A DNA stretch of 64,000 nt. It comes from Yuukianura sp. NJ FZ-2021. Taxonomy: Eukaryota. Position 1 is the first letter of the stretch, and every line of letters starts with the position of its first letter. The position numbers were made by a program, and so were the translations under genes. The stretch lies in the NCBI GenBank assembly GCA_046563655.1, contig CM102290.1, forward strand, positions 9,548,001 to 9,612,000. The letters run 5' to 3'. The notes beneath the pieces are model-generated. The model searched no databases. It saw nothing but the letters and a program-made list of their open reading frames with translations, and was not told the DNA's origin. Below, in pieces: positions 35,915-64,000 of the stretch.

Positions 35915-36787
35915 ATGTCAGTGTCCGGGGGACCTCAAATGGTAAAATAGTATTTACCTAGTAGCAAAGTCCCTCATTTAATTTCAAATTCCATTTTATG
36001 CTACTTACCTCAGGGTAATCGATTTTGGTGCGTTTTAGGATGTTGGAGGAATGTACCATGGAGCCCATTTACTTACACGCCCAGCAGATGAGTATGAAAA
36101 TGACGTAAGAAATTAACGAAGTTTATAATCCTGTCTTAATTCGATTGTTGACCAATTGCATTGTAACTGTTGTTCGTTGTCCATTTTCAGGGAACAGTGG
36201 AGGCTCTTTGGGTTCGTCAAGCGTGTCAACATGCCGATGTGTACTATAACGTAAGACAAGATGCGCCACTCAATTGATAATTGAATTATAAAATTTATTG
36301 GGAAATGAAAGCTAAATTGACTCCTCGGTTTTGTTTTGCCAGCTTATTACCACTGTGAATCCGAATTACCTTAGACTTACACCAGACGACGACAGGATAT
36401 TCAATGCTTTCATGAAATGCTTCCCAAAGCAAAATCTGTTTGTTATAACTGAGGAGGATTTGAAGTCTGACAGTAACAAAGTTGTACGTTTAGAATTTTT
36501 ATGTAAACATAAAAAATCCAAATCTTTTTCTAAATTATGTTTTCTCATATCACTTTGTGGACTATTAGAAATGGAGAGCCTTCTGCGAAGACTTCAAGGA
36601 CATAGAAGACTACAGTTTCGGCACTTTGCTTCGCCTAAATGTGACTGGAGATTTTTCGGAAGACAATACTATCCTTGTCACTCGAATCCAATTTCTGGCC
36701 ATAGAGATTGCTCGTAATCGTTCCGGATGTAACAACATCGTTTGGGCTCGACACGCTAGAAAGAATCCAGACATAGCCGATTCATGA
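35915..36787 (+). CDS. PBDC1: Polysaccharide biosynthesis domain-containing protein 1, 5 coding exons
   Basis: Spliced peptide includes ADEYEND, HADVYYNLI, LRLTPDDDRI, KWRAFCEDF, DYSFGTLLR and RIQFLAIEIARNR. Confidence 0.92.
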
Positions 36788-37170
36788 CATAAGGAGGGAC
36801 GTATTACTACTAAGAAGAATACTAATTTCCAGAAACGGCTCAAGAATGGATTCGATGACGACTTCCAGTTTTTGCATATGGTGGAACAAGTTTTGAAGGG
36901 CATGAAAAGTTACATGGAACGAAAGGGAACTAACCTAACCTAAGAATTAACAGCCATTTACACTAATCATTTCTCATCAGCATCCATTTATTGCTCTATA
37001 AAGGTACAAATATTAAACAAGAAATTAAATACTTTGCTCTAATATATTGTACGCACCAGTATCATGTAAATCTTAACATTGCACTGAATTCAGTATCTGT
37101 TCTGGAAGTTATTGAGGTTGTTTGTTGAGCATTCTTCTAAAGCAGCTTTTCAATTGATGCTTGGTTTGGC

Positions 37171-39825: not shown

Positions 39826-41221
39826 CTAAAAAAAAAGGAGGAAGGAAAAAGAGGAAAAACGGAAAGATTAAAAAAAAGATGAAAAAACAGGAAACACAGT
39901 TTCGGCCCACCACACCGATTTTAGTATGCTCTGTATTGTATCTATCTAGGAAAAAATACCCGAGAAAAACACAAGTGTGGTATCATGATACACGTTAATT
40001 GACCGAGATACTCAGACACCGAATGCCTAGTTTAGTAACCATTTTTACTATTAAAAATTATGTTAAAGGAAACAGCAATGATTACTTTTGATACTATTCA
40101 TGTCCATAAGTTTCAACGCGTGTAATTCTGCTCTTCCACTCATCTTAGACAATTCACACACTGTAACGTCATCGTACTTAGCGTAGATTCCATTAACATT
40201 AATCGGAACCTTTCTAGACAAACGTTATGGCTTGGTATAAGCACTTCAACAATTACGGTATCGTCTGCGCTAAGTTAGGTATCCTCGATTCGATGCTAAA
40301 CTGTGTAACCTTATCCGGCGCGGAGTTTAGCATTCAGGGTAGTAAACTCCGTGAGGTGGGCAGAAACTGAAAAATGGCTATGATATCTTGAGTTTTGCAT
40401 TTAATTTCCAAAAATCAGTTGACTTACAGCTCAATTGCTATTGCATAATGCATATTCAAACGAGAAAGAAAATAGTAGGTATAAGAAATAACTGTCGTCA
40501 TTGTAGCCTGCATACGTTGCCACTAAACATAATTCTTTAGCCGTTTTGTGGCTGCATTGGATGGCTACTCTTTGGTGGTAACGCGTGCTGCCATCGTCTA
40601 GGTCATAGTAGCATAATGAACGTTAGGGCAAAGGGGTGACATAATTGACGCAAAGTTTATGCAACTATTTAGGCCGCGAAGGCAATTATGTCCGGTGGTT
40701 GTTATAGTTACCTTTCGTCCTTACGTCAACCAGACAAATCAATTGCAATCACATTTGGCGATTGGCAAATGACAATATGGCATAAACAGCGTATGTCGTG
40801 TGTCGTGAAATTAAATGTATTGTTTATTAGATTAATTTATATATTTCTATTTAGAATTCATAGTTTATACTTTCTGAATAAATTTAATGAATGACTTGAA
40901 CGTAATTTAGATTATATTCAATTAGTCTTAGAATGCCCATATAATAAAGTTAAGGGTGCCATATTGAGGATGTTCAATGGGTAGCTGCTTGCGCAACTCG
41001 ATCTCGTGCTTGCGAAGACTCCAAAATCGGCAAACTTCTTTTCTATTCTTTTCCGTTCTTTGATGATTCAGTAAACGTCCACTTTTATCCTAATAAGGTG
41101 TGTACGTTTTTGATTCAATTACTAATTGACTAATTCGAGCACTTAGAGCAAGATACTACTGTTCAGCATCAGTATCCTATCGCAGTCAAACCAGTCGAGT
41201 ATATAAAACCAAGTATTCAAA

Positions 41222-43521
41222 ATGGTAAGTGTTTTAAGTGTTTAACAAATGTTATAAGATGCATGCATTTGTATTCCTTTTGCGACTTCTTCACCGATTC
41301 ATAGCCTCAACTTGAGGCCCTCAAGACAATCCGTAGTAAGTAATATGCGGTGTTTCTGGGTTTTAGGCGTCACTCAACCCTGTTCGAATCATGAAGCATG
41401 AAGCGGATTTGGAGAAGGCTGAAACGGCTCGAATGAGCAGTTTTGTGGGAGCCATTGCCGTTGGTGACCTCGTCAAATCTACACTAGGACCAAAGGGAAT
41501 GGACAAGATTCTGGTTGGCAGAGGCAGAAATGATGGAAAGGTAAGTTGGTCATGTACAAATTAACTCCGACTTTGTTACTGACCCGGTATTCGCTAATGA
41601 ATAGTGTTTTGTTTGAATAGATTGAAGTTACCAATGATGGTGCCACCATTTTGAGAAGTATTGGTGTTGATAACCCGGCAGCGAAGATTCTTGTTGACAT
41701 TTCTAAGACACAGGATTCCGAAGTTGGAGATGGGACGACCTCAGTCACCGTCTTAGCTTCGGAGCTTCTGCGAGAGGGTGAAAAATTAATTGAGAAGAAG
41801 ATTCATCCGCAGACAATTGTTGCTGGATGGAGGAAAGCTGCAACGGCTGCTCTCGAGTGTCTCGAAAGTGCTGCCAACGATAACAGGTACACGATAAACT
41901 AATTTCTTTTGCTACAGGCGTGAATGATTTTATAACACTTTTTGTGGCAATTTTCAGTGCTAACGAAGATTTGTTTCGTGAGGATTTACTCAACATTGCT
42001 CGTACGACATTGAGCTCCAAAATCCTGAATCAGCACAAGGAGCATTTCTCCAAACTGGCCGTAGATGCTGTGATGAGACTCAAAGGTTCAGGAAACTTGG
42101 CCGCCATTCAAATCATCAAGAAACAAGGTGGAACTCTGTTGGACTCTTTTCTGGACGAAGGATTTCTTCTGGACAAGAAAGTGGGAGTGAACCAACCGAA
42201 GAGGATCGAGAAGGCTAGGATCTTGGTGGCTAACACTCCAATGGACACTGACAAAATCAAAGTATTTGGTTCTCGTGTCAATGTCGATTCAACGGACAAA
42301 ATTGCCGAAATTGAAATGGCAGAGAAAGAGAAAATGAAGGAGAAAGTTGCTAAAATCGTTAAGCACAACATTAACGTTTTCATCAATCGGTGAGTTGTAC
42401 ATCAAAGTACAGATTTCGATTATCTTCTTATTTAAAGTAGTTGACCAAACACTAATTACTTTCAGACAATTGATCTACAACTACCCTGAACAACTGTTCG
42501 CTGATGCTGGAATCATGGCAATTGAACATGCCGATTTTGATGGAATTGAGCGTCTGGCACTTGTTACAGGTGGAGAAATTGTGTCCACTTTTGATACTCC
42601 CGGTAAAGTGAAGATCGGTACTTGCGATCTCATCGAAGAGGTAATCATTTCACTACTATTCACTAATTGCTAAAGTAACTAATTAATTACTAGGCTATGT
42701 TAGTGTACTTAACATTGTAATTAATCTTGTTTCTTGCAGGTAATGATTGGAGAAGAGAAGGTGTTGAAGTTTAGTGGAGTTGCTGTTGGCGAAGCTTGTA
42801 CGATTATCATTCGTGGAGCAACCGCCCAAATCATTGACGAAGCAGAACGATCCCTCCATGACGCACTTTGTGTCCTCAATGCAACAGTCAAAGAAACCAG
42901 AACTGTCTATGGAGGAGGTAACTTAATTAGTTTTAACTATGAAGATTGACTTAACGTAGTTAGTTATAATATTTAAATTCAATATTATCTTAGGCTGTAG
43001 TGAGACACTCATGGCCCTTCGAGTATCGGAGTTGGCTCTGGAGACTCCTGGAAAGGAAGCAGTGGCTATGGAGTCATTTGCAAAGGCTCTTCTCGTAAGT
43101 TTTGTTATTATCTTGTACTATATTGCTAAGCTATGTTTTATTTGGCTTTACTTATTTGTTGCGTCTGCTCTTTCAGATGTTGCCGACGATTATCGCTGAT
43201 AATGCTGGTTATGACTCGGCAGAACTCGTGAGCCAGCTGAGAGCTAAGCATGCGAAATCAGAACGCACCTTTGGATTGAGTAAGTAAAACTTTTACATTG
43301 ATGACATTTGGATGGGTGTTAATTGTGTTATGTAATTGTTTTTTTTAGATATGGACCTAGGCAAGGTGGCTTGCATGAGGGAACTTGGGATCACCGAGTC
43401 GTTTGCTGTGAAGCGACGAGTTGTTTTTGCTGCCGCTGAAGCAGCCGAAATGATCATGCGAGTTGACAACATCATCCGAGCAGCTCCGCGTCAACGAAAT
43501 CCAGACAGAAGTCGCTGCTGA
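41222..43521 (+). CDS. CCT2: T-complex protein 1 subunit beta (chaperonin CCT2)
   Basis: ATG alone in the first coding exon, then [10 protein letters not shown]...[42 protein letters not shown], and C-terminal [12 protein letters not shown]. Confidence 0.98.
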
Positions 43522-44709
43522 TTTTGTTGTTGCTTTTCTGAAATCAATCTTCCGCTCCACTAATAAGTTTCTAAAATATTTCAAACTGAATTCAGAAGTT
43601 CTCACTTTCTACAACATCAATTGCTTAAGCTTACGAGTTACTAAGAATTAAAATAACTAATTCATTCCTTCAGACACAAAGTGACGTATTCACTTAGATA
43701 TGTCACTGGGAGGTGAAATTCAAGTTATTTCTTCAGCTTAATGCTGCGAAGAACTAAAGATTGGCACAGTATTTGAGTTGGCATTATATCCACATCAATC
43801 GTGTCGAGTTTCGAGAACCTTACATTTCTCGCACATCGCCGTGGTTCAGACGTTACTAGTCAACTTTCTATCTTATCGTTGATTGACTACAAGTTGAAGT
43901 AATTGGTTAGCTTAACATAACGTAGCATAACCTAATTAAGTTATTGCATAGACTAATATCTGACGCATCATTTTCGTGTCTGGGAAGGAGTGGCTTAGGT
44001 TCGTAAGCTCCGCCTGGCTGAAATAGAGTTCATGGGAAAAATGTTAAATTTTCACGTTTTGTTGTATGCGGTGACAAATTCTTGATTGAAAGGCAACAGT
44101 TTCATGTAAAAGTTAAAACTGAAAAATAATCTTACTAAAAAATGCGGAATTAGTTTGCAAAAGTTGGGAAATATTTTGGATACTAAATTCACCATGTGGG
44201 CCTTTCCCTATGATGAGAAAGAGAATGATGAGTTGTTCATTTCACTTTCACTTGTCACAGTTTGTTTCAAAAACATCTCCGGGTTTTCTTCCGTCGTTTC
44301 TTCATCAATTAAATTGATCGAGAGGTAATTCGTACTCAATTAATCGTTGTACAAATAAACCTACGTGTGACTCTAATAGTCGGTTTTTTAGGCTGCTGCA
44401 GGATTGTTTGGATTTGGAACTCAGTCAACCATACGTTTTCGTACAACGGGAAGGTCAAAGGTCAAATTCATAATTTAGCAGGTACTGTCTATCTTCTTGT
44501 CCGTTTCTCTACTTGGTATATAAACTTGTGCAGTATAGTCGTAGTCGTGTTTAGGTTTTTCCCGCAAATCGAACTCATCTTTCGTTTTTCCAGTTTCGAA
44601 CTTGTTTGTAAGTTTTGAATTAATCGTTTCATTTTTTTAGACTGTGAAGCAGCAATCTTGTGCTGATATTTGTTTAGAAGCTTTCTGAGTTATTAGTGGG
44701 GCCAAGAAG

Positions 44710-47190
<2,481 letters not shown>

Positions 47191-47652
47191 TTTCTACGTT
47201 CAGTTAAGCTATCAATTGAGCTAATTAATTAATTCAGGAAGCTCATCAATATGTTAATCTTATTCAACCAATCATCAACAACTTCGATTACTTCTCTTAC
47301 GGAATCCACTTCATTCGATGTTTTAAATTGCGGTTTCTAACTGCGCAACGTGGAACTAATCAGGAACTTTCCAGTTTGTAAGTTTACAGTTAATTATAAA
47401 AATTTAATTAAAGAATATAAAATTTTGTCGAAAACAAAAGAAATCCTTCCTTTTTTTTTTGTAAAAGTCAAAATCATATTTAGTTGAAGAATTAGTATAA
47501 TTTAACTTTAAAATAAAAATCAATGCGTATTTTTTTGATGCTTCAATGGAACCTGGAAGCTTTAATTTTTTTTATTTCATGCGCAAGTTCATTTTTTTTT
47601 TTTTTTGAAAAATTTGGACAGTTTAACATTTTCTTAACATAAGTAATCCACC

Positions 47653-50600
47653 TTACATCCGATGGTAACTGCCATCGTTTTGTTGTTTCTCCATTGATGA
47701 TCCAGAAGCGTCAATTCCAAAAGCAAGTGCGGAGTCAGACGTCAAGGGGTCAGGGGCCCTTGGACCCTCTGGGGTCACTCCTCCTGCCAACTTGTTGATC
47801 AAGACTTTTTGGTTTTTCATTCGAATGACAAGGAACACGACTCCACCGAGAGCAACGACCACAGCGATGAGACAAATCATGATGGTTGCTATCAAACCGA
47901 CTGAAGTGTGCTCTGGAAAAGGTCACAAAAAGGTCAAGGTAAAGCTATGGTCAGGGATCAACGTTCTTTGACTTTGATTTCACAGGTTGAGTAATACCTC
48001 ATGTTTTTTCGACTTTGCAAAAAATAGTGTCTTTCAAAGGCTATCGTAGTCATAACAGCACAGCCGAAATATTTAAATTTTAAGTATGAATTGGTACCAA
48101 TTTTTTGTTTTTTACTTTTTTCTTCTCCTTTTTTTTTGTCAGCGAGGTAGTAGTCAACCTGTCAAAGAAAATTCATTTTTTGTTGTCAATGAACCTTGGT
48201 CGGGAATGGTCAAGGTCAGAAAAGTTAAGTGAAGTGAAAAGACGACGGCGGATCACTTTTTCTGAAAATGACGTTGATGTTCAGGGTGTGAACGTGAGGA
48301 ATAAGAAATGCTAAGGAAAATGGTACAGGTCAAGAAAATTTGAGGAGGTCCAGGTCACTCACCACGAATGACGACCTTGAACGTTCTGGAGGTTGTTCCA
48401 GCCAAATTCTTAGCAATGCAAGTGTATTCTCCTTGCGTCTCGTACGAAACTCGAGTAATGTTGATTCTACTTATTGTTTTAACCGAAGTAGCATTCATCC
48501 ATGGGGTTGTGTAACGGTAAAACCTCTGTAATGGCAGAAATTTTCGAAGTAAATATCAAAAGAATCTCGTAATTCCTTGACCTTGACACTACCTTGTCAT
48601 TTTTTCTCCAGGAAATGACAGGGGCGGGGTCACCGGTGGCTTCACAGTCAAAAAATTTGTTTGTTTCGTTCACGTACCACTCCACCACAGTGGGGCTTGA
48701 TACCTCTGTACCAACAATAGCCGGTTTGGTTGGCACTGTAAACAAATTTTACAAATGTTAAGAAAATTCAAAACGTCTAAAAATTTGTGTTGAAATTTCA
48801 TGTTTTGAGAAGCGAACCTTGAACTTTGACCTCAATGGTTCGATGTTTCCACTCTGATGTGTTCCAAACAGGAGCGTAGCACCCAACTGTAGCCAAATTC
48901 ACATCGGCAGTCAGCAGGAGAGTAATGATGTTCCGTCGAAAACGTTGCGAAAACCTTCTGCCAGTTGTATTTCGCAAGGCCTCTGTCAAGGTCAAGCTTC
49001 AAACATCAAAATTCTGGAAAAATTTTAATGTTCCCAATTTTGGTGCCTGCCTGTACCTTTGACAGTAACTTTTGTGCCGTTAGCAAAGCCTACAACCCAT
49101 CGTGTCCCTTTGGAGAAGTAGTAGTCAGAAACTTGACACCCAAAGGTCACGTTTTGACCTTCGTAGATTTTGTCAGCGAATGTTCGTATAGCTATCATCT
49201 TGTCGGGATCTGCTTGTTTCCAACTGAAATCTAAAATAGAGGTGAAAACTTTTAGCTCAACGGTACAATTTTTTGAGCATTAAGACAGACTTTCAAAACA
49301 AAAGTCGTAAACTAAAATTTTTGCTAAACAAAGCTTTTAGGTCAAACTCCTCACAAGGGTCACTGAAGGACCGATTTCGGTTAAAGGCTCCGCCAAATTC
49401 GAACTGTGTTCCCATTGGGAAAAAATATTCCCGCACAATGTCAATTCCATCTCCGACGCATCTGAAAATGCCCGCAATTTGATTGCGTGACACCCTGATG
49501 TATGAGCATGTTCCGTTTCGTGTTGCAGTGTTTTCCAACTTTTTACAAAACACTTTTTAAAAATTTTATATGTAAAAATTAAAGTTATGTTGATTATGCT
49601 CTGTTTACTGACGTAGAGCAGTGCGTCTTTCCTATTTTTGCAGGACGTTGGATGGTCGCAGTTGAAATGCATCATCGTTGGCGCAATTGTGTCAGGTCGA
49701 CTGCAACAAAACAAGCGACCAGTAGATTTGTCAAAGCCAAATCGTGCAGGTCGCTTCACGACGTCACCAAATTCCATTGGGTTTGCTTCTGTAGTATAAA
49801 TTTGAAAAAAGTTATAAAGTTTTTTCGCAAAATTTTTTAATACAGTGTTTATGAAAACTGGTTTTTACCTGGACTTGTACTTGGAATGACGTAGACAGTA
49901 GCAGTGTCCTTCGAATCGGAATTTGCAACGCACCGATACGGTCCGAACGGATCTGGAAGGTTCGTCAAAGTAAAACCGCGTTTCGGATCATACGATATGG
50001 ACGCATTCGGTTTCATCTCGGTCCAAATCTCTCCGCCAAAATGAAAAAAGATAACCTAAATCTTAAGTTTTTTTTTTGAATTTTTTTTATAAAATTTCAA
50101 AATTTAAGTTTTACAAACAAAATACTGACTGTGGTGACGTTGACATATCCTTTGTAAAGCTTCACTTGAATGTCCGGTCTCGCCACGGTACAAACGACTA
50201 GCGATGTACTGTCCCTCACAAGCTATAAACGACCCTCTGGAAATGAGGAATTATGGCGGCGTGCCAAAAAAAGAGGTACACAAAAATGAAATTCGCCGTT
50301 TTTCAATAAAGTGGATTTCCCGCCACAAATTGTTCAAATTTTTTTTCTTTCAAAATATTGAACTGTATTTTCAAAATTTTGAACTTTTTTCAAAATTTTG
50401 AACTTTTTTCAAAATTTTGAACTTTTTTCAAAATTTTGAACTTTTTTCAAAATTTTGAACTTTTTTCAAAATTTTGAACTTTTTTCAAAATTTTGAACTT
50501 TTTTCAAAATTTTGAACTTTTTTCAAAATTTTTGAACTTTTTTCAAAATTCTCAACTTTTTTCAAAATTCTCAACTTTTTTCAAAATTCTCACCTTTTTT

Positions 50601-52676
50601 CAAAATTCTCAACTTTTTTCAAAATTCTCAACTTTTTTCAAAATTCTTAACTTTTTTCAAAATTCTCAACTTTTTTTCAAAATTTTCAACATTTTCCAAA
50701 ATTTCGAACTTTTTACAAATTTTTGACCATTTTCTCAAAATTTTGAACTTTTTCAAAATTTCGAACAGTTTCCAAAAGTTTTGAAAAAAGTTCAAAATTT
50801 TGAAGTTCGCAAGTTTAGAGAAATGTTCAAAATCTTGAAAAAAGTTCAAAATTTTGAAAAAAGTTCAAAATTTTGAAAAAAGTTCAAAATTTTGAAAAAA
50901 GTTCAAAATTTTGAAAATACAGTTCAATATTTTGAAAGAAAAAAAATTTGAACAATTTGTGGCGGGAAATCCACTTTAATGAAAAACGGCGAATTTCATT
51001 TTTGTGTACCTCTTTTTTTGGCAAGCCGCCATAATTCCTCATTTCCAGAGGGTCGTTTATAGCTTGTGAGGGACAGTATTGGTAGCCGGATCCAGAATGG
51101 CTTTAAATTCGTTTAAATTACAACTATATTTAAGCATAGCCTGAAATATTAGTTATAAATTCTCTTAATTGTTTTTATTTCAGACCTTACCAGTTGAGTT
51201 TAAGCCTTGCTGAACCAAGAATGGCGGAGACGTGGCTTCCCAGTACACGTACATACTGCGTTGGACAGACTTCGCCCCCACTTTTTGGCATGTGTAGTTC
51301 CCAGTGATTCCGTTGCTTGACCCCATTAAACGCAAGTCAGCAACGTACTCAAACGACGACGGGTCACTCAGGTCAACGGACTTGCGCGTTGTCGTGACGG
51401 TCACGTACCAGCGACCCCGTGACGATCGCTGAACAGCGTGCGACGGAAGCTACGCGGAACAAAACGTTGCAAAATTAAAAACTATAGTTCTTTTTTCTAT
51501 GTGCAGTTGCTGATTTGATTTTGAACGCCTGAATCCTAGAAAAATCTCAGCTTGAAATGAATCGGTTGCGAATCGCACCCGGAAATCAAAACGTTCTTCG
51601 CTCTTAATTTACATATTTTTTAACTTCTTCGAAATTTAATAACAATAGAATTTAATTTACGCATTTTTTAATCTCGCGAACGGAAAACGATAGACACCTA
51701 TTCTTTTCACGAGAAACTTTCAAAAAACATGACAAATTTTAACAAATATTGGAAATTCCAAAATCGAACATCAAGTTTTTCGTGAAATTTTGAAAAAAAA
51801 CCATGGATTTTTTCGAAATTTCGTCAAAATCTGAGGGTACCTTTTTATATTTTCTAAAAATACTCCTTATTTGTGTGAATTCAGGGGCGAAGAGTTTACC
51901 TTTCTATCGCTTTCCGTTCCCGAGTTATGAATTTTGAAAGTTTTTGAAAATTTAACCAAAATTTTGAAAAGTAGTAATGAAGTAATTTAAATTTCAAGAC
52001 CCTTAGAGATTTAAAGTTGGAAGATATAAATATAATAGAAGCAAAATTCCCTAATTTTGACTGTGTCTGGTTCATTTCAACCTAAGACGTTTTCATTGGT
52101 GACGCGTCAAAAATCAATTCAACAACACTGCACACTGAAAGAAATGAACCATAAAACTAAATTAAACGTTTCTTAAACATTTTGAATAGAGGTTAAACTT
52201 TAAACGTTTAAATTAAGGACCTTGAGAGGCCAATTGGCGCGACTTTCTTTCATAACTTGTAACGACTTGATTTTTTTTTAAGGTGAAAGGTCACGAGTCA
52301 GTTTGGTACCTGTGAGTGGTGAAACGCCCATTCAATGGGGTAGGAAGCATTACATGACAGAATTACTCCTGGAAATTAAGAAAAAATTAGGCTAAAGTTA
52401 AAATGAGCTTAAAATATTGAGTCAGGTTAAACCTTGGTTAAGATTTAAAAGTTAAGTTAAAACTAGGTTGCAATTTAAAATTGAGGTTAGTTTGGTTAGG
52501 TTAACCTTACCGTCGACAGTGCCTGGAATGACCAGCGTGTTTTCGTTAGTTCCAGGCCCCTTCGGTACTTCGACGCTCGAATCCCAGTTGAAGTCGCCAC
52601 TGGCTGTCCAGCTCGTAGGTCGAATCAGCGGCGGAGTCACGGCAGCAGAGGTCAACAGAAAAAGTAAAGTGGCCAT
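47653..52676 (-). CDS. PVR/VEGFR-ectodomain-like Ig-domain type I membrane protein without kinase domain (paralog A); exon 4 is interrupted by a transposon
   Basis: Signal peptide MATLLFLLTSAA; Ig domains (GNYTC, VCTVARPDIQVKL...YDPKRGF, CEATGDPAPVISWRK...GEYTCIAKN); TM LIATIMICLIAVVVALGGVVFLVI; ~57-aa tail then stop. All exons are phase-consistent once 50209-51078 is removed. Confidence 0.8.
50209..51076. mobile_element. 868-bp non-autonomous foldback/MITE with TA target-site duplication
   Basis: Arms CTGTCCCTCACAAGCTATAAACGACCCTCTGG... are reverse complements with 2 mismatches seen in the first ~165 bp; TA at 50207-50208 and 51077-51078. Confidence 0.95.
50372..50916. repeat. 19-bp tandem array (CAAAATTTTGAACTTTTTT)n inside the foldback; forward copies on the left, inverted copies on the right
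   Basis: Directly visible. Perfect copies lie near the arms; variants (CAAAATTCTCAACTTTTTT) and degenerate copies lie toward the centre (~50770). Confidence 0.95.
51673..51924. mobile_element. Inverted-repeat remnant (probable old MITE) in intron 2 of paralog A
   Basis: CTCGCGAACGGAAAACGATAGA (51673-51694) versus the reverse complement of 51903-51924: 20/22 identity. Confidence 0.5.
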
Positions 52677-53030
52677 TGCAGTTCCACCACTAAATTTGAA
52701 ATTCCGTCCAAAAGATTTCAAATTTTGGAACTGAAATTCTCAACTATTCGGGAACTAATTGACGGCACTTCTGGAGAACTCATCAAAAAATAGGAGAAAA
52801 TGACACAAGAGAATCTGAGGTTGGAATTCTTTTTGTGTGTAAAAAGAAAAACTAATTGCTTCCGCTTGCCGTTTTTATATGAAATTGAACAACTGAAATT
52901 TTGAACAATTGAAAATTTTATAACAATTGGAAATTGGAGACTTATTTTTAGAAAATGAACAAAATAAAACCGACATGCCACTGATCCGGAATCCATTTTT
53001 CTATATTTTGAATTTCGTGCATTTTTTGAA

Positions 53031-56000
53031 TCAAATGAGGTTGGCACTCAATTTGCTTGGATCCAAGGTAGAGTTGGTGTAGTCAGGCGATTCGTTTTCG
53101 GTATCGTGAAACGGTACCGGAACGGTATCTGGCAGTGGCTCGATTGGCGGTTCTGGTCGAATACTTCCGTCTTTGAAAGTTACCGCTGACGAAAGTTGGT
53201 TGATCACACGCTTCTCACTGCGGAGCTTCAAGGCCATGAAAACCACGCCCACCGCAAGTAGAAGTGACAAAGATACGCCTACCATTATAGCCACCGTTTG
53301 TTTCCAGGACGCGGGCTCTAAATTTGGAATTTTTTGGAAAATAAATAGATCAACATTCAATTTGAAAATGCATTCTGTGAATCTTTAGGAAAATGGGAAA
53401 CACTGACTGACCTACTACGTAAACGTGAATTTTTCGCGTGACGGAGCCGCCAACGTTTGACGCAGTGCAAATGTACGTTCCATTTGTTGCGTAACTCACG
53501 ATGTCAAAGCGAATGTTTTCCCGCGTGAAATTTCCCGTGGCATTCACTTCCTGTGTGTGGTTGACGTTCATATGGGTAGTATGCCACTAACAAAAATATA
53601 ACATAAAACGAATTTAATTTTATACATTAATATATTATAATGTGTTATTTATTTTTTATATTAATTTTACCCAGTCGTCAATTTTTGTCCAGCTGAACGT
53701 TGGAACTGGGACGCCGAAGGCAGAACAGCTAATTTCCTTACGTGTATCGTTCATCGTCCAAGTATAAGATTCCTCAAAAGTATCATTCAGTACTGGCCTG
53801 CTCGAAGCTGAAAACGACAAATTGAAAATTTTGAAAAAAAAAACTTTTGAAAATTTCGTCCGCCGAAGTTTCTTACCGTTGATGTAAAGTGGATACGGCT
53901 TATGAATATATTCCGTAGAATTCCAAACCTTATACACAGAAAAAGAATAGTTTGACCTTTGACCTTGACCAAACTGTTGCAGTTTATTTTAAATATTCTT
54001 ACAGGAGCAATACACATGACAGAGTCCAAGTCAACATGGGCAACAATTTTGAGGTAAGCGTTTGAATAATCATACTGATACTTTGGTGTTGGAGACACTT
54101 CAGAATCTATACAAAAAAATCCACCAGCTCAATGACCCTGACCCCGTGATGCTTTTAAAAAAGAAAAAGATGGAACTGACCTTTGACCTTGATCGTACCG
54201 TTCTTCCACTTGATGGCCCATCGTATTCCATTTGAAAAGTAGTACTCCGATACGTAGCAGTAAAAGTTCAGAGATTGACCATGGTACAGCGTAAGACTTG
54301 CTGGGTCCACTGATGTTGACCTCCGGTACCAGTAGTAGTCGCTCAGCCGTATCAACATCATTTCATGCGGGTCGATCTCAGACCAATCAAAATCTAGATA
54401 ACAACCCAACAACCAATCAAAATCTGTCACCATCAATAATTCACCGTTTGATCTCATGGCGTTACTTAAAAGGTCAAAGGTCACGCGTAACTACTTACAA
54501 GCATTAATCTTCTGTTGTTTCCGCGGTATCGACCAATCACGTAGTCCGAACACATATTGCCGGAAACTGTCGATTCCGTCGCCAACACAGTGTACGAGTC
54601 CTGCCGAGTGGACGTACAACCTCACTGTCGTACATCCCCTCCGTGACTTCTTCCTTAGAAAAGTGTTGTAGAGGTCCTGCGTAGAAAGTTATATAAAACT
54701 TGGTCATTTTTATGAAAGTTGTCAGTAGAAAAGAATTTTACATGCACAGGCTCACCGGAGCGACAAATTTCTTTCTGAATTCACACATGGCAGGATGGTT
54801 ACAGTAGTAATGCATCATTACTGGAGAACGACGCGAACTTGAGCAGCATTTGACCTTGGAAGTGGCCGGGTCAAAGGTTATGGTGGCATTCGACTTCTGC
54901 GGACGTAACCAACCACTGGATGGATCAGACTCTAAAACCAAAATTCAAATTTTCAAAAAAAAAAAAAAACATTACTTTTTAAGAGTTTCAAAAATACCAT
55001 TTTGAAGTTTGACCTCAACGTTGATAAATTCTTGAGCAGGGTTGGGTCCACTGGGACGACAAGTGTAGTTGCCTTTCAGAAATGGAACTTTGTCTAAAAT
55101 TATTCCGCGACTACGCTGAAATCTCACTGAACTGTTGTACGCAACGAATTCCGATGTCTAGAAATTTCGAAATTTTGCATATTTTTGTCAGTTTCAAAAA
55201 CTTTTTTAAGTTCCCCTTACATTTGCAGCACCACTTTTGCTTAGGACAGGATTTTTGAAATCGGGATCAGAACTGACGCAAGGAAGAACAGCGATATTGT
55301 CCTCCGCATAGACCGTGAGTGACTCATTAGTTTGGATGAATTTTTGATGAGAATCGTCTAAAATAAAATTTTGAAAAATTTTAATTTCTCGGGGTTTTTG
55401 TCAAAAGAGGTCGAACATCACACCTTGCCAAAAAATGTAAACACTTGATTGGAGGCTAGTCCTGGCAGCGTGTGCGCAAGTGTAGTTGCCTGTCAAGCGG
55501 TTGTAGTTCCCGTAAATGTTGATTGTCGCCATGTACTCGTAGGTTCGGAGGTCATAAATATTTTTTGCCGTTCTGCGTGTGCGTAGTGACAACATCCAGG
55601 AGGCGTGCCCTATAAACTGAAATTACAACGGAAAAGTTAATCTGGGTACACACTGAATTTGAAACATTGTTTCTAAATTTCAAAATTCGAAATTCCAAGA
55701 TATGAAAAAAGCCAGGTTATTTTTGTTATAAATATTTTTTTGGTGTCCAAACTCGTGAAAAATTTCGCATTTTCCCATAAACGTTCAAAAATATTGCTCA
55801 AACTTTCGGTAGTAAGTCGGTGTAATTTTGCCCGAATTCCTGGAAATGTCCAAGGTTTGCGGTGCCTTACACTGTCCGAATTTTTTGGATTTGTCAAATT
55901 TTTGAAAACGTACACTTTTTTGCTGAAATTTTGACTTACATGGGCGTTATGGAATACCCACGTAATTGGGTACGGCGCAGTACACACGAGGACACAGCTA

Positions 56001-56173
56001 CTCATTCCCTTTGGAACAGCGTAACTCCTCTCACCGATTTTCGTAACGTTTTGACTATTTGAGCTGTAACCGTACTGAAATTCATTTGAACTCATAAATT
56101 GAATTATTGGCGGAGACTGGAGTTCAGCAGCAGTCAACCCTACCACCAGCAAAACCAACCACACCGCCCCCAT
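53031..56173 (-). CDS. PVR/VEGFR-ectodomain-like Ig-domain type I membrane protein without kinase domain (paralog B), apparently intact
   Basis: Signal peptide MGAVWLVLLVVGLTAA; Ig domains collinear with paralog A (CTAPYPITW, TGNYTC, CCS...CNHPAMC, CVGDGID, YYFSNGIRW, CSAFGVPVPTFSWTK, NGTYICTASN); TM VAIMVGVSLSLLLAVGVVFMAL; ~65-aa tail then stop. Confidence 0.82.
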
Positions 56174-57149
56174 TTCCAAAAATTCACAAACGGTCTAAAT
56201 TCTGGTTCTTCAAGATTATAAATTTCAAAACGCCTCTCTAAATTCCTAACCGAAAACTGTTCCATGAGATGCTGACTTACTTACCAGCAAAAGGAAGTGA
56301 AAACAAAAGATCCAAAGCTTTCAAAAATTTGGTTTTTGCAATCGCATGTCAGTCAATTGTTCCGCTTTCAATTGATCCATGGTCACTTTGGCACGAATAG
56401 TTAAGTTGATGTCCTGAATTTGTTACCCAAAACAAATTGTAAAGTTGACCGCTAAAGTTAACTAGGTATAAGCTTAACCTAATTAACCTAGTTGACGTCG
56501 TTTTTAACGCATTCTATAGTAGAATGTTCTACTGTTTGCAGTTTCTGTATAAACTTACCTTTTAATATTAGTAGTTTTACAAGCATGCTGCGCATGCTCG
56601 ATGGCGTCGCTGGCGCTCAGTAAATCAGTAAATATGCGGTCTTGGAATTTTTCTAAACAAACCAATTGGTTGCTAAGCATTTGAGAAATCACCATTGCTC
56701 GTTAGTATTATAATAGATATTTCACGGTAAGCAGAAGTTGTTATTCGGAACCTTACGATATCTTCTTTAAAGGTAATGATTGTTGGTGTTGAACGACTTC
56801 CTCAACAAATTAAGTAAAACATAAATTAGTAATTTCCAATAAAATTTATTTATATATCAAATATGTTTATAGAATATGTAATTGTATTTGATTGTAACGT
56901 TTTTGTCCATGCGTGTTTTTGCCCATGTTCGTAACGGAAAACCCTCCTCATCCGCCCCCTCTATTTTTTGGACAGAAAAAAAACCTTCGCTCATCCAGTT
57001 GTTGACTCTTGAAGTTGAAGACAGTTGAATTTTTATAATTTATTTAAATAACGTCTCTTTTTAATTACAATTAATTATTGATTACTTTGATAAGTGACCT
57101 CCGACTCCTGAATGACTTGTCAGTGTATCAAGTAAACTGAGACATAAAC

Positions 57150-58355
57150 ATGAATGTTAACGTCGCAACTACTGCGCCTTTCCTTCTACTTGTCTTCTTC
57201 ACATTCTTCCAATATTCTTCAGTGTCAGCTGAGGTAATTGAGTAATTGTTAATTAGTATTTGACTTAACTAATTATATAACATAAATATACATTATCAAA
57301 TATGTATTATCACTATCAGGTCTTGAAGTCTTTTATAATTGTTGCAGGGTACGGCTGGTCTCTACGCTGACACACGCTGTATTTGCCAATGTCCCGAACC
57401 TTCACTTGTCATCACTACTGTGACCGTTACGACCAATCGAACTGCATACATTAGCAAGAAGGCGCCTAATCCTAGTGAATGGTAAACCAAAGTAGCTTAT
57501 ATGATCATTGATGTTAGTTTAACTATTTAAATTTTAAAATGAGGACTAATTGACATGATTTGGGTTTAGTAATTGCGAGGAAGTGGTTGTTCCTTTGCTA
57601 TACAACTTGAGTGGATTCGCTGGGAAGGAAGGAGAATTCTGTCCACGATGTACTTGCAAATACAGTAGAAGGAATACTACCATAATCCAAGTAAAGTTTC
57701 AAACTTGGACATGCTCATTACAAGCGACATTCAAATGTCGTGGTTCAAATGGATTTTCATTTTGGATCTACCATTTTCCGGTTGAAGGACTGAACATGTT
57801 GATTAACGAAACTTTATCTTTTTTTCCTAGGTGATTGTAATAATTGTCATTTGGATCGTGTCTCTGCTGATGATCTACATGCTGTTCCTGATGTGTCTGG
57901 AACCACTACTCAATAAGCGGATTAAGAGCACACCCTACACGGAACATACAAATGAAGATGTAAGAAACACATAATCTGGTCCTTGTGACGTTAAGTTTCA
58001 GAACATGGCAGACCCTGTGAGGATAATATGAGATCTGAAAGTAGATTATGTTTGGTGATGGGTCTTCCTACAGGATGAGGCAATTGGAGAAGAGAGTGAG
58101 GGTGGCGGCGGTTCGTCGTCAGGGATCGGAGGAGGAAGCCGAACCGCTCATGCTCTCCGCATGACACCTACTACAAGTAAAATTAATTAACTTAAGTAAT
58201 TATCAAAATTTCAAACTGTATGTGAAACTCCACTCCTTATAGGTGAAGCCGGCCCCAGCGTCCTTAACCGCGTGGGGCATCAGCAATCGAAATGGAAAAT
58301 TCAAGTTCAAGAGCAGCGAAAGAATATTTATGATCGTCATACAATGCTAAACTGA
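57150..58355 (+). CDS. TMEM9: TMEM9 family transmembrane protein
   Basis: Signal peptide; DTRCICQCP; FCPRCTCKYSRRNTTII; TM VIVIIVIWIVSLLMIYMLFLMCL; C-terminal VLNRVGHQQSKWKIQVQEQRKNIYDRHTMLN. Confidence 0.93.
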
Positions 58356-58826
58356 AAGTTATCAAACTTCTTCCTCTTGTACCAATTTTTACAATATCTG
58401 ATTTATAATTCCAATTGAAGAATTGACGTTGATGATCCCAACTAGTCAAAGAGAGCGAACGCGAAAACTGACGATCTGCACATGTTTTACTCTGCTCCTA
58501 GAAAACGTCTATAAAAAGGCCAACTGTAACGAAATAGTCCTGTTAAGTACATTCCGCAATTAACAAACGTTTATGTGCAGTTTATTAAACTTATTCAGAA
58601 AAATCTATCTAAAGTTTTCGTTTTCTAACCAAAATTTTTTTGAAGAGGCGAGAATTTTTACTTTCAGGCTCCCTACTTTTGTCTTTTTCGTATTGCTAGT
58701 TAATCTCACTGGAATCGATAGGCGGAGACACACCTAACCTGAAACGTTAAACGTAACTTTAACCCTATTCCTAACCTAATCTTACGATTAGTTAGGGCTA
58801 ACCTAATTTGATGTGCGTTAGAATTT

Positions 58827-60242
58827 TTAGACGTAGGTGGCCACGTAGAAGTGACCGAAGAGAAGCACAAACGTGAGCATGTACAGAATGAGAGAGATGG
58901 CTACCCAAGAGGGGTAGCCACAAGGCCACTCCAAGGTCATCACGCAAATCCAAATTGTGGTGACAAACTGGAGCTTGAAGTCAAAATTCAAAAAAAAATT
59001 TAAAAACGAAAAACATTGAATTACCATTTTGAACAGGTTTGACAAAAGTGCTTACTATTTGAACAATCGTGAGTAGTTTTTTGAAGATGATGTTTTGGTG
59101 GTGGTGACTGGCAGTGGACGAAGCTTTGACCTTGTAGTACGAGTACATGATGACATGGATCCAGCAGTTGATCATGGCAATAATGACAGCTACAAATTAA
59201 GTTACGAGTTATAAGGTCAGAGGTCAAACAAATCATTAGGAAGAGGTCAAAGGTCAACTCACTAGTTCCTCCGGGGACGATCCTTGCTCCAAGCCACGTT
59301 GCGCAGAGGATGGTCGTGTGATGGTAGACATGGAGGAAGGTCAACTGTCGCTTCTTGCCCCGGGCGATGATGAAGGCCGTGTCACCCAACTCTACAATCT
59401 TCGAGATGTGGAAGAGGTAGACCAGGAATGGAGCCTGTCAAGGTATCAAATGTGATATTATAATGTAATTAGTTATTATTTAATTTAATTTAATTATTAT
59501 TAATCTTGTTACCAGCAATAGTTCTTCTTCTCTCACTGGTTCACATGTCACTGAATACTGTCCGCGGACGATGACCCAAGCTAACTGAAAAACAGACAAG
59601 GTCAACTGCTGGTCACTTCCAAGTAAAAACAGTGGTGGTCTTACTCCAGAAGCTACGCAGAAGTTGATGAGTACATTGAAGACGTTGTAGTACTGAAGAC
59701 ACACTGTAGTCCGACAGTTGTGGATACCTTTGACCTTGGTTTCTGGAAGACAGACGGAGTCCTTCACACTGGCATCCAGAAGGTCACTGGAGGAAGACAG
59801 ACAGCCACTGCTGCTAGGCTTCCAGTAGTGAAAGTGAAAGATGAAACCTAAGTACACCCCGCAAATTCCGAGCGGAATGAACGGACTCCCCATTAAAAAC
59901 CATCCCTCTGTTTGGGTTTGGGGACCTAAAGTAATTAATTGTAATAGCGTTAATTACTTTAAATATGCGATTCTAATTAAGTTACAATATCAATAGTTGC
60001 AGGTTAGAGCTGTGGTGAAAGTCAGGGAGAGAAAGCTGTGCCACTGTTTGTGGCAAGACTTCACTTGGTTTATGATTGAAATAGGAACGAAAACCATGCT
60101 TGAGCCCAAGTAAAGTTTATTTATTGTTTTAGCTTGGTTAAAAAAATAAAGTTAGTGTGTAAAACTTACTGATTAGTTGCATTGATCTGTTCCATTCTTC
60201 AAAAATGTATTGCACAGTCAAACCAAAGTAGTCAGCCATCAT
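58827..60242 (-). CDS. Fatty acid elongase (ELOVL/GNS1-SUR4 family)
   Basis: GWFLMGSP; KIVELGDTAFII; catalytic histidine box FLHVYHH; NCWIHVIMYSYY; TIVQI; LFGHFY. The C-terminus could extend via a weak splice donor. Confidence 0.92.
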
Positions 60243-61211
60243 AATGCTACTTGCTAACAACCCTGTTGAATATTTTCTACAACTGACACTTTATAAGGCA
60301 AGTCAATTAAAATAACATATTTATGTTAATCTCAATCAATTTTTAATACAAACTACAAAACTTTCATATTTAGGTCGAAAGTAAATAAAAATGGAAAGAA
60401 AAGTGAAATATTTCCCCTCCCTTTCTCTCTTTTCTCCCAGCTTTCTCTGGCACATGCTCCCTTCGGTTTGATAAATACCGCTGACCCCGTTGTTAAAAAC
60501 AACATCTTCAGTTAACGTTTAATTCTAATTAGTTAACTACTTGATGCATTACTAATTGTACTATAGTTAGCTAGCTGAGTTCTACTTAAGTTTTTAATTC
60601 CGCTTTGGCATTCAGTGTTGCAATTTTGAAACGTTTTTATTGATTTGCTGGGAATTTTGTACATATTGAAAAACCGAAAAAGTTTTTAAAGAGGCCGACT
60701 TTTTTTCTTTGTTGTGGTTTGGCCAATCGCATTCAAGCAACTAAGACAATTTGGAGTACCGTAAAACCTCCATGCTAGTACTTCGGCGTTGGTTTGTACT
60801 GGGACTAAAATATTGTCAACGTGCAAAATAGTACAAATAGTAAATAGTAATGGTATAATATTGTTATATTTTTAGTTGTTATTATATTAATATATAACTT
60901 AATTCAGTTTACTTAATGCAAGATGACAAAAAAGGAATCTCGGGCCGATATCTCAATCTATAGCGATGGACGATTATCAGAGACCTTACGGTACTTAATA
61001 TTTTCAACCTCTTTTATGAATTGACAAATGTGGAACAAAAGTTGGAAAAGTTGAAAATTTCTTTATTTTTTGGAAGTGGTTCACTGACCATAGTCTAAAT
61101 TTAGTTCTCAACTTTGGAAGACAACAAGGGACGAAGACGCACCGGTGAGCTGATTGGCCGCTTCTTACTTAATTAATAATCGAACCCGATATACTTACAA
61201 GAAATCAGATC

Positions 61212-62026
61212 ATGACGATTCATTGGAAGCAAAGTACATGGATTATTTCAGCCCTGTTGTACCTTCCAACACTCACCTTCGTATGGGCAACATGAATCAA
61301 TTACTAATCTAATTCCATTGTAAAAAATCCGTAAGTTAATTGGTAATTGGATATTTCAGATCTCTGCTGGAGATGAGGTGATGTTCGATAGTCTACTGGG
61401 GGCTGGAGATGATTGTAGTTTGATTGGATACAACAAAGACACTTTGCCCTGTTCCCACTGTGATGTACTGCCTAGATATGACCTCTCCGACCTACAGTAA
61501 GTTCAAGAAGGGGACTCGTTTCATGTCTAACTACTTTTAGTCTCATTCCATCATCCGCCATGGCAATGAAGCCATGATTATCGTTTTACTAATGAAATCG
61601 TTTCTCAACAGGCCGGGCTGTAAGCAGTGTTGTAACCCAGCTCTAGTCGATAAGTCAGATGACCTTGACATACCGTCAACAAAGTTCCATAAAGCTCGTC
61701 TCGAAGTGTGTTGGTAAGTTGCTGATGGTTGCCGGTTGGTATCAGAATTTTAGAGTTCAATGAAACAATGTCAGTTATGATGTTCGTTAATCCCTAGGTG
61801 TAAGTTCCCATCGATGCCACAAATTGAAGCCTTCGTGAAAACGGAAGAGAGGGAACGTCGATTCAAAAATCTAGAATTGAAGCACATCCAATATCAGAAT
61901 CCGATCATCAAATTATTCAATTCTGACGGAGATGTAGTGGAGACACTGGCTATCAACAAGTGGACTACGGACACAATCGTAGAATTTCTAGCATCACACC
62001 TCGAACAACCAAATAACGAACTCTAA
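61212..62026 (+). CDS. SELENOF: Selenoprotein F (Sep15)-like ER thioredoxin-fold protein, Cys-containing homolog, 4 coding exons
   Basis: Signal peptide; Cys-rich domain (C..GY...LPCSHC...CKQCC); ARLEVCWCKFPSMPQIEAFV; PIIKLF; KWTTDTIVEFL; C-terminus NNEL. Confidence 0.88.
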
Positions 62027-62477
62027 ATTATAACGTTAGCTCTTCTACTACGTAACAACTTCCTGTATCCCTGTGGAACACTGACACGACAGAATAAACT
62101 TCCTTTATCCAACACCCACTTAGCGGTCAGAGGTTATATTTTCTTAACAGTTTTATTAGTGTTGTAAACATATAATAAGAATATCTAAATATCTAACCAT
62201 ACTAATTTGTACATCATTCAACTTGTTTCAATGAACAGTTACACAAAGCCACTCACACATAAAACTACTTACAACGGAAAACATTATTAGAATTTGATTC
62301 GTTTTAACTAAGAATTTTTTTTTACACTTGCTAGAAGTATTTTTAAATCCTTCAGATAACTAGTAGTAGTGAGACTACTAGTTTTACAAGGATTTCCGAG
62401 TTACAGTTACGTAATGGTAATTAAAATTTATACTAATGCTGAGACATAAACTTTACGAACAGTTAGATTGGAATTAC

Positions 62478-63928
62478 TCACTTCCAAGTACTTCTGGGAG
62501 CTAATCCAGCAGCAGACCCAAATCCAAGTCCAACTCCCCTTTGGGTGTGAGTAATCGTTCTGGCGACTTCGTACTCTTTTTCCAATTTGTTGAAGTACTC
62601 TTTCGACTGCGTCGCTGGAACTGGCACATCCTTCTTGTCAGAAGTACTTGTGCTGCTACTGTCTGCTACGAAGAGAAAGGGAAAAAAGTTTAGCAAAAGT
62701 ATTTGCTCAGAATGTTCGTTGTTCATATTCGGAGTTTTTTTTTCTATACGTACCACCATCTTTCATTCCCATGAGACGCTTGAACTTGGCAGAAACTTTT
62801 CCGTCTGAATCATCAGAAAATGTTGTCTTCTGCCAAACCGAGGAACTTGATGATGCTGTGCTAACAGGAGTTTCCTGCAAAAATGTTGCTTTTAGTCATA
62901 TCCTTATTGATACAACGCTCATTCGAACAGTGGAGCTTGGATGGTCCACGAAAACCAACGTGCATACCTTTTTGCTAAAGAGGAGCTTCCTCTTTTCAAT
63001 TTGCTGGACGAGGTTCGTAGCTGCTGGGCAACTGATATTCAGTGAAATTGGGCGCAGGTCATCGTCATCAATATCGTCAGTAGTATCGGGCTCGGTCTCC
63101 TTTCCTGAAAAGGTTAAAAATAGCATTACCATTAGCACAACGCAACTCCACTTCAATTAGTAATTGAGTGAGAGAATCGTAATGACAATTAGCAAAACCT
63201 TGCGGCGGAAGTTCGTTGGATGCCTTCGTATCACATCTGTTGAACGGTTTTCTAGAATCGTATTGCGAACCTTGTCGGAAATTCTGTCTATTATCTCCTC
63301 GTGGATTGGAATAATTGTACCCGTAGTTAGAACCTCTCTTCCTCTCTGGACTGTGATGATCTCCGTGGTTTGACCTGAAGGTGAATCGCAATTGCTTATG
63401 ATAAGACAATTAAATTGTTAATCAATCAACCTCAATAAACAACGAATTCGTAGAAACGTTTCTCATGATTAGTTTTGCGTAGGTTTTAGCTTACCCGCCA
63501 CCACCACCGTCCCTTCCAGTATGAGCATTTCGGTCTCGATCGGGGCTACGACTACGTTTTCTGTCGTAATTCCTTCGTTCATTTCTCCCATTGCCACCAC
63601 CGCGATTTGTGTAGTTTCGGGGAAAGAATTTTCCATCGGACGATCCACTGTGACCTTCATCACGGTAATGTCTCGCAACCTACACAAGTATGGAAAACTA
63701 CTCTAAAATGTTAATCATTTGCTCTTTAGTTCAATGTAGCAGGATGTGCTTCAATTTTAAAAATTATCCAATCCTACATTTCATTTAACTAGTGAAGTAA
63801 CTAGAATTCAATTAAGAACTCACCTGTCCATCTCCATAGTCTCTGTTATTCCGATATCCTCTTCCGCCATACCCTGGGCGACGATATTCCTGATGTTCCT
63901 TCTTGTCCCAGTCTTCTCTCCGATCCAT
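62478..63928 (-). CDS. RSRC2: Arginine/serine-rich coiled-coil protein 2-like (SMAP domain)
   Basis: Arg/Asp-rich N-terminal exons, then QQIEKRKLLFSKK, WQKTTFSDDSDGKVSAKFKRLMGMK and LEKEYEVARTITHTQRGVGLGFG. Confidence 0.85.
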
Positions 63929-64000
63929 TTCCAGTTAAGTATAAATTAAGGATCAGGCAATCATAAATACAACCAACAGAATTCAATTAACTTTAAAGTT

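Follow-up and report, generated by a model that had tools for sequence, protein, structure and literature searches.

Can the ligand-binding end of a growth-factor receptor exist as a gene of its own, anchored in the membrane and free of any kinase? The question is raised by two neighboring genes, here called A and B, that lie in tandem on the minus strand, within positions 56173–47653 of a 64,000-nt window of the Yuukianura sp. NJ FZ-2021 genome (GCA_046563655.1, contig CM102290.1, 9,548,001–9,612,000). "The window" denotes this whole stretch, and all positions below are counted from its first letter. A preliminary sequence-only reading had proposed that the two genes encode kinase-less receptors related to PVR, the invertebrate counterpart of VEGFR/PDGFR. 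Our comparisons place A and B as anciently duplicated A-type and B-type members of a springtail family of predicted single-pass membrane glycoproteins. We favor, at a probability of roughly 45%, a role as decoy or co-receptor, in which the predicted proteins would bind a PVF-type factor and either sequester or internalize it, or else act at a kinase receptor, as presenter of the ligand or as competitor.

The N-terminal domain pair and the missing kinase

Proteins A and B share one layout, comprising a hydrophobic N-terminal leader, five immunoglobulin (Ig)-like domains, a single membrane helix, and a short tail. Each contains 15 cysteines and 15–19 N-glycosylation sequons, and the sole strong hydrophobic segment lies near the C-terminus (residues 584–617 in A and 593–619 in B). 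A full-length blastp alignment of the two gives 29% identity (E 5e-88), a similarity far past chance that identifies them as collinear paralogues. The sequence-only reading had described them in these terms (strongly diverged, collinear, with a signal peptide, about five Ig domains, and one membrane helix), and that description holds.

The signal peptide and domains 1 and 2 (D1–D2) are encoded by exons 1–5 of gene A (49869..52676, minus strand) and exons 1–4 of gene B (54998..56173, minus strand), each a VEGFR-type pair. The domain-2 motif reads ISYDPKRGFTL in A and takes the degenerate form VRFQRSRGIIL in B. To place this pair, we combined nine fragments, all from other species, into a D1–D2 profile (alignment A2) with no window sequence included, and searched it against 177,635 distinct PDB sequences. 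All 14 of the best matches were VEGFR-1/2/3 or PDGFR-alpha/beta. The leading match, VEGFR-1 (5T89; E 8.4e-18), consists of one 54.3-bit stretch that places profile positions 60–222 on chain residues 21–183, collinear with D1–D2, and pairs LPCrVsrPD and yDpkkGFtl of the family with IPCRVTSPN and WDSRKGFII of VEGFR-1. It was followed by VEGFR-2 (7e-14 and 3e-13), PDGFR-beta (3e-9), PDGFR-alpha (2.3e-8), and VEGFR-3 (5e-7), and the isolated domain 2 of VEGFR-1 matched at E ~1e-6. CSF1R and KIT appeared at 0.017–0.046, and obscurin, the first unrelated protein, at 0.02. The possibility that the best hits would belong to an unrelated adhesion family of the Ig superfamily is thus not borne out for D1–D2 (E 8e-18 versus 0.02).

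On the window proteins, the same profile scored 204.7 bits in A (residues 11–243) and 110.3 bits in B (residues 38–222). The controls were 75 giant multi-Ig proteins gathered by a word-index search with the whole-family profile, and hence drawn through its generic last domain; only one of them gave any match to the D1–D2 profile, with 7.3 bits for the best single domain. When the D1–D2 fragment of one relative (P0001, introduced below) was searched alone against the PDB, two sequences were returned at E ≤10, both of them VEGFR-1. Of the 21 family relatives scanned (cockroach P0018 excluded), 13 matched the Pfam model PF21339 (VEGFR-1-like Ig) in domain 2. Two of these exceeded the curated 27-bit cut-off (P0006 with 44.4 bits and P0013 with 30.2 bits), and the 11 others scored 13.8–24.2 bits. 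PF21339 was the best Pfam match of domain 2 in most relatives, and the D1–D2 profile ranked VEGFR/PDGFR first, in agreement with the earlier assignment of the YDPxxGF motif of domain 2 to the VEGFR/PDGFR type. Both A and B carry the VEGFR/PDGFR-type N-terminal Ig domains, including the ligand-binding domain 2, that characterize class III/V receptor tyrosine kinases. Judged by these profile alignments, the N-terminal pair is specifically of the VEGFR/PDGFR kind and not merely "Ig". The nearest clusters in the ESM Atlas, which we treat as leads only, were vertebrate "PDGF receptor-like protein", FLT3, PDGFR-alpha, and KIT.

A single membrane helix, another property of class III/V receptor tyrosine kinases, is present in both A and B; the split tyrosine kinase is not. 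The last exon of A (47653..47912, minus strand) encodes the membrane helix, the juxtamembrane sequence RMKNQKVLINKL, the tail end SYHRM, and the stop, while that of B (53031..53317, minus strand) encodes the helix, the juxtamembrane sequence KLRSEKRVINQLSSAVTFKD, the C-terminal DPSKLSANLI, and the stop. Translation ends 52 (A) and 62 (B) residues past the helix. The tails are therefore short, as had been anticipated; these lengths depend on the boundaries used here, the earlier estimate being 57–65 aa. Pfam detected no kinase among 110 minus-strand open reading frames (ORFs) of ≥40 aa in 28000–47660, the sole match being a PH domain at 34073–34927, and none among a further 124 ORFs (plus strand, 36000–47700; both strands, 56200–64000). 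A kinase domain was likewise absent from 13 of 13 relatives scanned at E 0.001–0.01.

These results bear on the most conventional explanation of the locus, namely that A and B are ordinary PVR-type kinases whose kinase exons lie further off, or on another contig, and were overlooked. We found nothing in its favor and consider it close to refuted already. Both frames stop 52–62 residues past the membrane helix. A spacer of 354 bp (52677..53030), close to the earlier figure of about 350 bp, separates the stop of B from gene A, which opens with a start codon and signal peptide of its own. Gene A is followed by a convergent ArfGap gene (exon at 44893–45111, plus strand), whose proximity to the 3′ end of A had been noted from the sequence, and then by a CCT/TCP-1 chaperonin subunit (41367–43518, plus strand) and PBDC1 (36316–36784, plus strand). 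None of the 234 neighboring ORFs gave a kinase match, and the annotated relatives in four species are kinase-less, including a RefSeq model of 680 aa. Both genes are complete with no kinase, and the view that the locus leaves no room for kinase exons is upheld.

The springtail family and its domains

A word-index search with one exon returned only P0001, a 228-aa fragment that is 84% identical over half the exon. HMMER with P0001 against 1.84 billion representatives yielded 19 more proteins at E ≤0.001, and the named matches were all from springtails, with the exception of one weak cockroach match (P0018, E 3.8e-4). A word-index search with residues 60–600 of P0006 returned P0006 alone. The full-length relatives are P0004 (Orchesella dallaii CAL8084665, 746 aa), P0008 (O. 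dallaii CAL8084668, 796 aa), P0007 (O. cincta ODN03968, labelled "otk-like"), P0009 (Allacma fusca CAG7726368, 673 aa), and P0099 (Folsomia candida XP_021960720.2, 680 aa, "uncharacterized"), all with the same layout as A and B. P0004, P0007, P0008, and P0009 match the window genes with blastp E values of 1e-50 to 1e-106. The best relative of A is P0004 (32% identity, E 9e-106); those of B are P0008 (30% identity, E 8e-96) and then P0009 (E 6e-82). The springtail relatives resemble A and B in length class, five domains, motifs, and kinase-lessness, yet are only ~27–32% identical to them. Membership of A and B rests on full-length collinear similarity and on the shared motifs CNASYPxxW, TGNYxC, LPCxVSxPD, YDPKxGF, CCS, CxHPxxC, CxGxGID, YFxWxExxP, YYFxxGxxW, and CxAPVWNS.

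All database members carry automatic names only; UniRef, for instance, calls P0006 a "PDGF receptor-like protein". Literature on Collembola VEGFR/Pvr, Pvr decoys, PDGFRL, and springtail receptor tyrosine kinases yielded no description of such a family. The passages of PMC11024359 that deal with PVRs concern the kinase-bearing receptors of crustaceans and make no mention of PVR genes that lack a kinase. The family is unnamed and uncharacterized, and its named members are so far restricted to springtails (O. dallaii, O. cincta, F. candida, and A. fusca).

A maximum-likelihood tree was computed from 14 rows, five of which are N-terminal fragments that fill <40% of the columns. Gene A groups with P0004, P0003, and P0011 in an A-type clade (support 97/94), and gene B with P0008 and P0009 in a B-type clade (support 90/92) that includes Allacma. 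A third clade unites P0007, P0012, P0013, and P0014 (support 82/91), the P0006 pair forms a fourth group, and O. cincta P0016 (ODM98512) sits on a long branch. In this topology, the orthologues of A are found in the CAL8084665 clade and those of B in the CAL8084668/CAG7726368 clade. Because the A-type and B-type proteins fall into separate clades, with Allacma in the B-type, the A/B duplication predates the split of these springtail lineages. The tandem A-type/B-type arrangement is kept in O. dallaii, where P0004 and P0008 are located on the same contig with accessions 3 apart. A further O. dallaii entry, P0006 (CAL8143227, 1304 aa), contains two copies fused head to tail, in which copy 1, including its membrane helix, is followed by a second D1–D4. 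Gene prediction has probably merged a further tandem pair here, which would mean that tandem duplication recurs in the family.

Domains 3 and 4 are encoded by exons 6–9 of A (48818..49788, minus strand) and exons 5–9 of B (53877..54931, minus strand) and show the same Ig-like motifs, specific to the family, in both genes: CCS, CxHPxxC, and CxGxGID in domain 3, and YFxW, YYFxxGxxW, and CxAPVWNS in domain 4. Both domains are beta-rich in an AlphaFold 2 (AF2) model of the orthologue P0004, which has a mean predicted local distance difference test (pLDDT) score of 67, with domains mostly at 70–90; an AF2 model of D1–D2 alone (P0003 with alignment A2) reached a mean pLDDT of 48.8. Their motifs and predicted folds characterize domains 3 and 4 as family-specific, cysteine-rich, and Ig-like. 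The membrane-proximal I-set domain is encoded by exons 10–11 of A (48363..48735, minus strand), the exon halves of which match Pfam I-set (E 2.5e-5) and Ig_3 (E 1.7e-5), and by exons 10–11 of B (53412..53807, minus strand), the halves of which match the same two models. In per-exon Pfam scans, this last Ig domain was the only one recognized, and by general Ig models only.

The I-set domain also dominated a search of the PDB with the whole-family profile, in which it aligned with domain 7 of VEGFR-2 (chain 658–755) and equally well or better with titin, obscurin-like 1, and DSCAM, among others. It likewise filled a VIA comparison of the 746-aa model, with Z ~14 against titin and obscurin-like 1. 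Two earlier proposals lose ground here. The pattern CxAxGxPxPxxxW, put forward as typical of PDGF/VEGF receptors, is a general I-set feature and not diagnostic of this receptor class. The domain order D1-D2-D5-D6-D7, with loss of D3–D4, is unproven, as no solved structure gives a significant match to the middle domains and the last one is an ordinary I-set domain.

On the cytoplasmic side, a juxtamembrane motif (K-x-QK-x-VI-x-x-L) is common to A, B, P0004 (RMKSQKNVISHLANLAFKD), P0007, P0008, and P0099 (KMQLQKKVIDHLAGIVFRD). The tail ends differ by type. A-type tails close with S-Y-x-x-hydrophobic (SYHRM in A, TYQKF in P0004), and B-type tails with D-x-x-x-[LM]-x-x-x-L-[IL] (DPSKLSANLI in B, DPSTLNADLLD in P0009), a form also shared by P0008. 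Y-x-x-hydrophobic is a form of endocytic sorting signal, and the tyrosine in the tail of A looks more like such a signal than like a phosphorylation site.

Gene models, a foldback element, and nearby repeats

The window is AT-rich (~36–40% GC), and its introns are short and of GT-AG type, with TTTCAG acceptors. Models of A and B were assembled from coordinates with GT-AG introns. Gene B (53031..56173, minus strand) has 12 coding exons that encode 681 aa in a frame open throughout, and it is intact. Its exons 1–6 span 56173-55940, 55616-55424, 55357-55221, 55157-54998, 54931-54756, and 54676-54499, and exons 7–12 span 54393-54181, 54106-54003, 53928-53877, 53807-53671, 53586-53412, and 53317-53031; every intron is GT-AG, with lengths of 63–323 nt. 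Gene A (47653..52676, minus strand) also has 12 coding exons and encodes ~669 aa when an inserted element is omitted. Exons 1–4 are located at 52676-52511, 52368-52310, 51449-51191, and 51100-51077 plus 50206-50130 (exon 4 is split), exons 5–8 at 50028-49869, 49788-49613, 49538-49355, and 49230-49057, and exons 9–12 at 48982-48818, 48735-48593, 48525-48363, and 47912-47653. Equal spacing with the relatives P0002 and P0004 guided the provisional choice of acceptors 50028 and 49538 and of donor 49613. A first model of gene A, with donor 51191 joined to an acceptor before 50197, a long exon 5, and another exon 6/7 junction, was replaced after comparison with P0001, P0002, and P0004.

The split in exon 4 is caused by an 868-bp foldback element (50209..51076) resembling a miniature inverted-repeat transposable element (MITE). 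Its TA flanks are duplicated at 50207-50208 and 51077-51078, and its two 268-nt arms (at 50207-50474 and at 50811-51078) are 97% complementary and identical to each other over their first 39 nt. The core is a 19-bp tandem repeat, and the window holds no second copy of the element. Since the arms are 97% alike, the insertion appears to be young. Exon 4 of A encodes the first strands of domain 2. Comparison with P0001 shows a single ancestral exon, situated downstream of an ordinary 90-nt intron (51190-51101), that comprised both the codons upstream of the element (AILDPATN at 51100-51077) and those downstream of it (TSLVVCTVARPD, starting at 50206). Once the element is omitted, the alignment of A with P0001 runs gap-free through the insertion site. 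The sequence-only reading recognized the collinear structure of gene A and overlooked this interruption.

Two routes around the element preserve the frame. The first would pair the GT at 51074 with the AG at 50223, two sites within the arms, and so excise the element while adding 6 residues; alternatively, splicing from the donor at 51191 to an acceptor before 50197 would skip the 24-nt exon piece. As read from this assembly, copy A would be either newly inactivated or dependent on splicing the element out, with copy B intact. The element has the appearance of a transposon that may be becoming an intron. A second inverted repeat in the window (30187-30261 / 30446-30520) has 75-nt arms that are 88% complementary and 184 nt apart, with DR1-like motifs between the arms at 30291 and 30414.

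The direct-repeat motif AGGTCAAAGGTCA, which we take to be the classical DR1 nuclear-receptor site, occurs at 19 sites in the window at ≤2 mismatches, compared with 1.88 expected, and 0 of 100 shuffles reached 19. Six sites are exact, three of them within gene B, and 7 of the 19 sites fall in the A/B locus. Examples are 53953-53965, 54177-54189, and 54471-54483 in gene B and 30291-30303, 44452-44464, and 59244-59256 elsewhere. Either hormone-response elements or a short dispersed repeat could account for the sites. Gene B also holds a 41-nt repeat with one copy at the exon 7/intron 7 border and a 76% identical one in intron 8 (53938-53978 and 54162-54202), and both copies include a DR1-like motif.

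The remaining neighbors in the window are ordinary, housekeeping-type genes, as are those already named. The PH-domain protein (34073-34927, minus strand) lies on the side of A, and TMEM9 (57559-58352, plus strand), an ELO fatty-acid elongase (58830-59437, minus strand), Sep15/SelM (61781-62023, plus strand), and SMAP (62481-62895, minus strand) flank B.

Proposed function and known systems

In VEGFR-1/2 and PDGFR, a dimeric cystine-knot ligand is held by domain 2 together with domain 3. We propose that the ectodomains of A and B would bind a secreted PVF-type (PDGF/VEGF-like) growth factor through domains 1–3. With no catalytic part, the protein would either take the ligand out of circulation or else present it to, or block, a kinase-bearing receptor. 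Removal would fit the Y-x-x-hydrophobic end of the A-type tail, which we infer to be suited to endocytosis.

Several observations weigh against this proposal. A D3–D4 profile, built from parts of five relatives and the window's own exons, found no significant match in the PDB (best E 0.048, the Fc-epsilon receptor), and so no detectable kinship of these domains with receptor D3–D7. The domain-2 motif of B is the most degenerate in the family. Foldseek with the AF2 model of P0004 gave VEGFR-1 D1–6 as its first match (E 9.6e-19) with titin, MDGA1, and neurofascin nearly level, a ranking that alone decides nothing. The single-sequence HMMER search with the D1–D2 fragment P0001 returned no receptor kinase at E ≤0.001 among the 1.84 billion proteins, so the family did not arise by recent truncation of a PVR gene. 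A PF21339-type domain also occurs in the kinase-less cockroach protein P0018, and the domain alone is no proof of PVF binding. Relatives from different genera share ~30% identity, a fast change that would suit an immune or recognition role as well. Finally, read-through into the foldback element meets a stop after 6 codons, which breaks the frame of A in this assembly.

Some of these points would also fit A and B as adhesion or recognition receptors of the Ig superfamily that share with receptor kinases only an ancient VEGFR-type Ig pair. Such proteins would have other ligands, either surface or microbial, or would bind each other; they would signal through adaptors docking on the juxtamembrane motif and would have no PVF role. 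The generic last domain, closest to titin, obscurin, and DSCAM, and the family-specific middle domains are compatible with this idea. So are a multigenic family (at least four clades in the tree) that changes fast between genera, the "hemicentin-like" setting of the five PF21339-type domains in kinase-less P0018, and the conserved cytoplasmic motifs, which are not strictly required of a pure ligand sink. Set against it is the N-terminal pair, which is collinear with the ligand-binding end of VEGFR/PDGFR at E 8e-18, compared with ≥0.02 for adhesion molecules, and whose profile touches just 1 of 75 giant Ig proteins. On balance, we regard an adhesion or recognition role as the main rival, less likely than the decoy or co-receptor reading. 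The broken exon 4 raises a different concern, namely that gene A has only recently become a pseudogene, or that the sequenced haplotype carries a null allele of it, and that B is the sole functional gene at the locus. The TA/TA-flanked 868-bp insertion in a coding exon, with its early stop, speaks for this, and a young insertion, as the 97% similarity of the arms indicates, would explain why the remaining exons are still open. Conversely, two in-frame routes lead round the element, and no other defect is found in the 12 exons; loss of A is a tenable, if not the favored, account of that copy. Improbable, in our estimation, is a two-part receptor, modeled by analogy on GFR-alpha, which serves RET as a ligand-presenting partner. 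Here, the family would be the detached ligand-binding half, with an ancestral PVF-binding D1–D2 retained; ligand held by D1–D2 would be handed, by way of the conserved membrane-proximal and juxtamembrane regions, to kinase subunits encoded elsewhere, and the A-type and B-type proteins would be ligand-specific subunits.

If the decoy or co-receptor reading is correct, a family with a VEGFR-type binding end and a conserved tail would offer an entry to the buffering of PVF signaling in a basal hexapod. Domains 3 and 4 present folds with no solved relative, and the exon-splitting element, with its in-frame splice options, provides a small natural case of a mobile element possibly turning into an intron.

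Among known systems, the VEGFR/PDGFR ectodomains are alike in their collinear D1–D2, in two motifs of domain 2, the ligand-binding one (LPCxVxxP and [YW]D[PS]xxGF), and in a single-pass type I topology with a membrane-proximal I-set domain. A and B differ from them in having no kinase and a tail of 52–62 aa, five Ig domains where VEGFR and PVR have seven, and extra cysteines in domains 3–4 (CCS, CxHPxxC). Vertebrate PDGFRL is likewise a kinase-less, ectodomain-only relative of the same receptor class with PDGFR-type Ig domains. It is the nearest ESM Atlas cluster by features (0.92) and by structure (TM 0.39–0.41, residues 22–348), values that we again read as leads only. PDGFRL is secreted, has no membrane helix, and is ~375 aa long, whereas both A and B have a membrane helix. 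The PDGFRL clusters are chordate, with 374–503 aa, in contrast to the ~669–681 aa, membrane anchor, five domains, and conserved tail motifs of A and B. The cockroach protein P0018 (Periplaneta americana "hemicentin-1-like" XP_069689011) is also a kinase-less membrane protein, with PF21339 at 84.8 bits, but consists of five tandem domain-2-like repeats and five I-set domains, without D1, D3, and D4 of the family.

The closest functional parallels, drawn for A and B by analogy, are sFlt-1 and the decoy insulin receptors of insects, in each of which a kinase-receptor ectodomain without the kinase serves as a sink for ligand or as a modulator. A and B differ from sFlt-1, which arises by splicing from a kinase gene, in being dedicated genes; the insect insulin decoys, reportedly the subject of a 2020 paper by Smykal et al., derive from another receptor class. 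In the literature searched, we found no dedicated ectodomain-only gene for the invertebrate PDGF/VEGF pathway. Ectodomain-only growth-factor receptor genes are a recurring means of signaling control, as sFlt-1, PDGFRL, and the insect insulin decoys illustrate. What is known, then, is the existence of ectodomain-only relatives of receptor kinases; what is new is a membrane-anchored, five-domain form with two unmatched domains, found so far in springtails.

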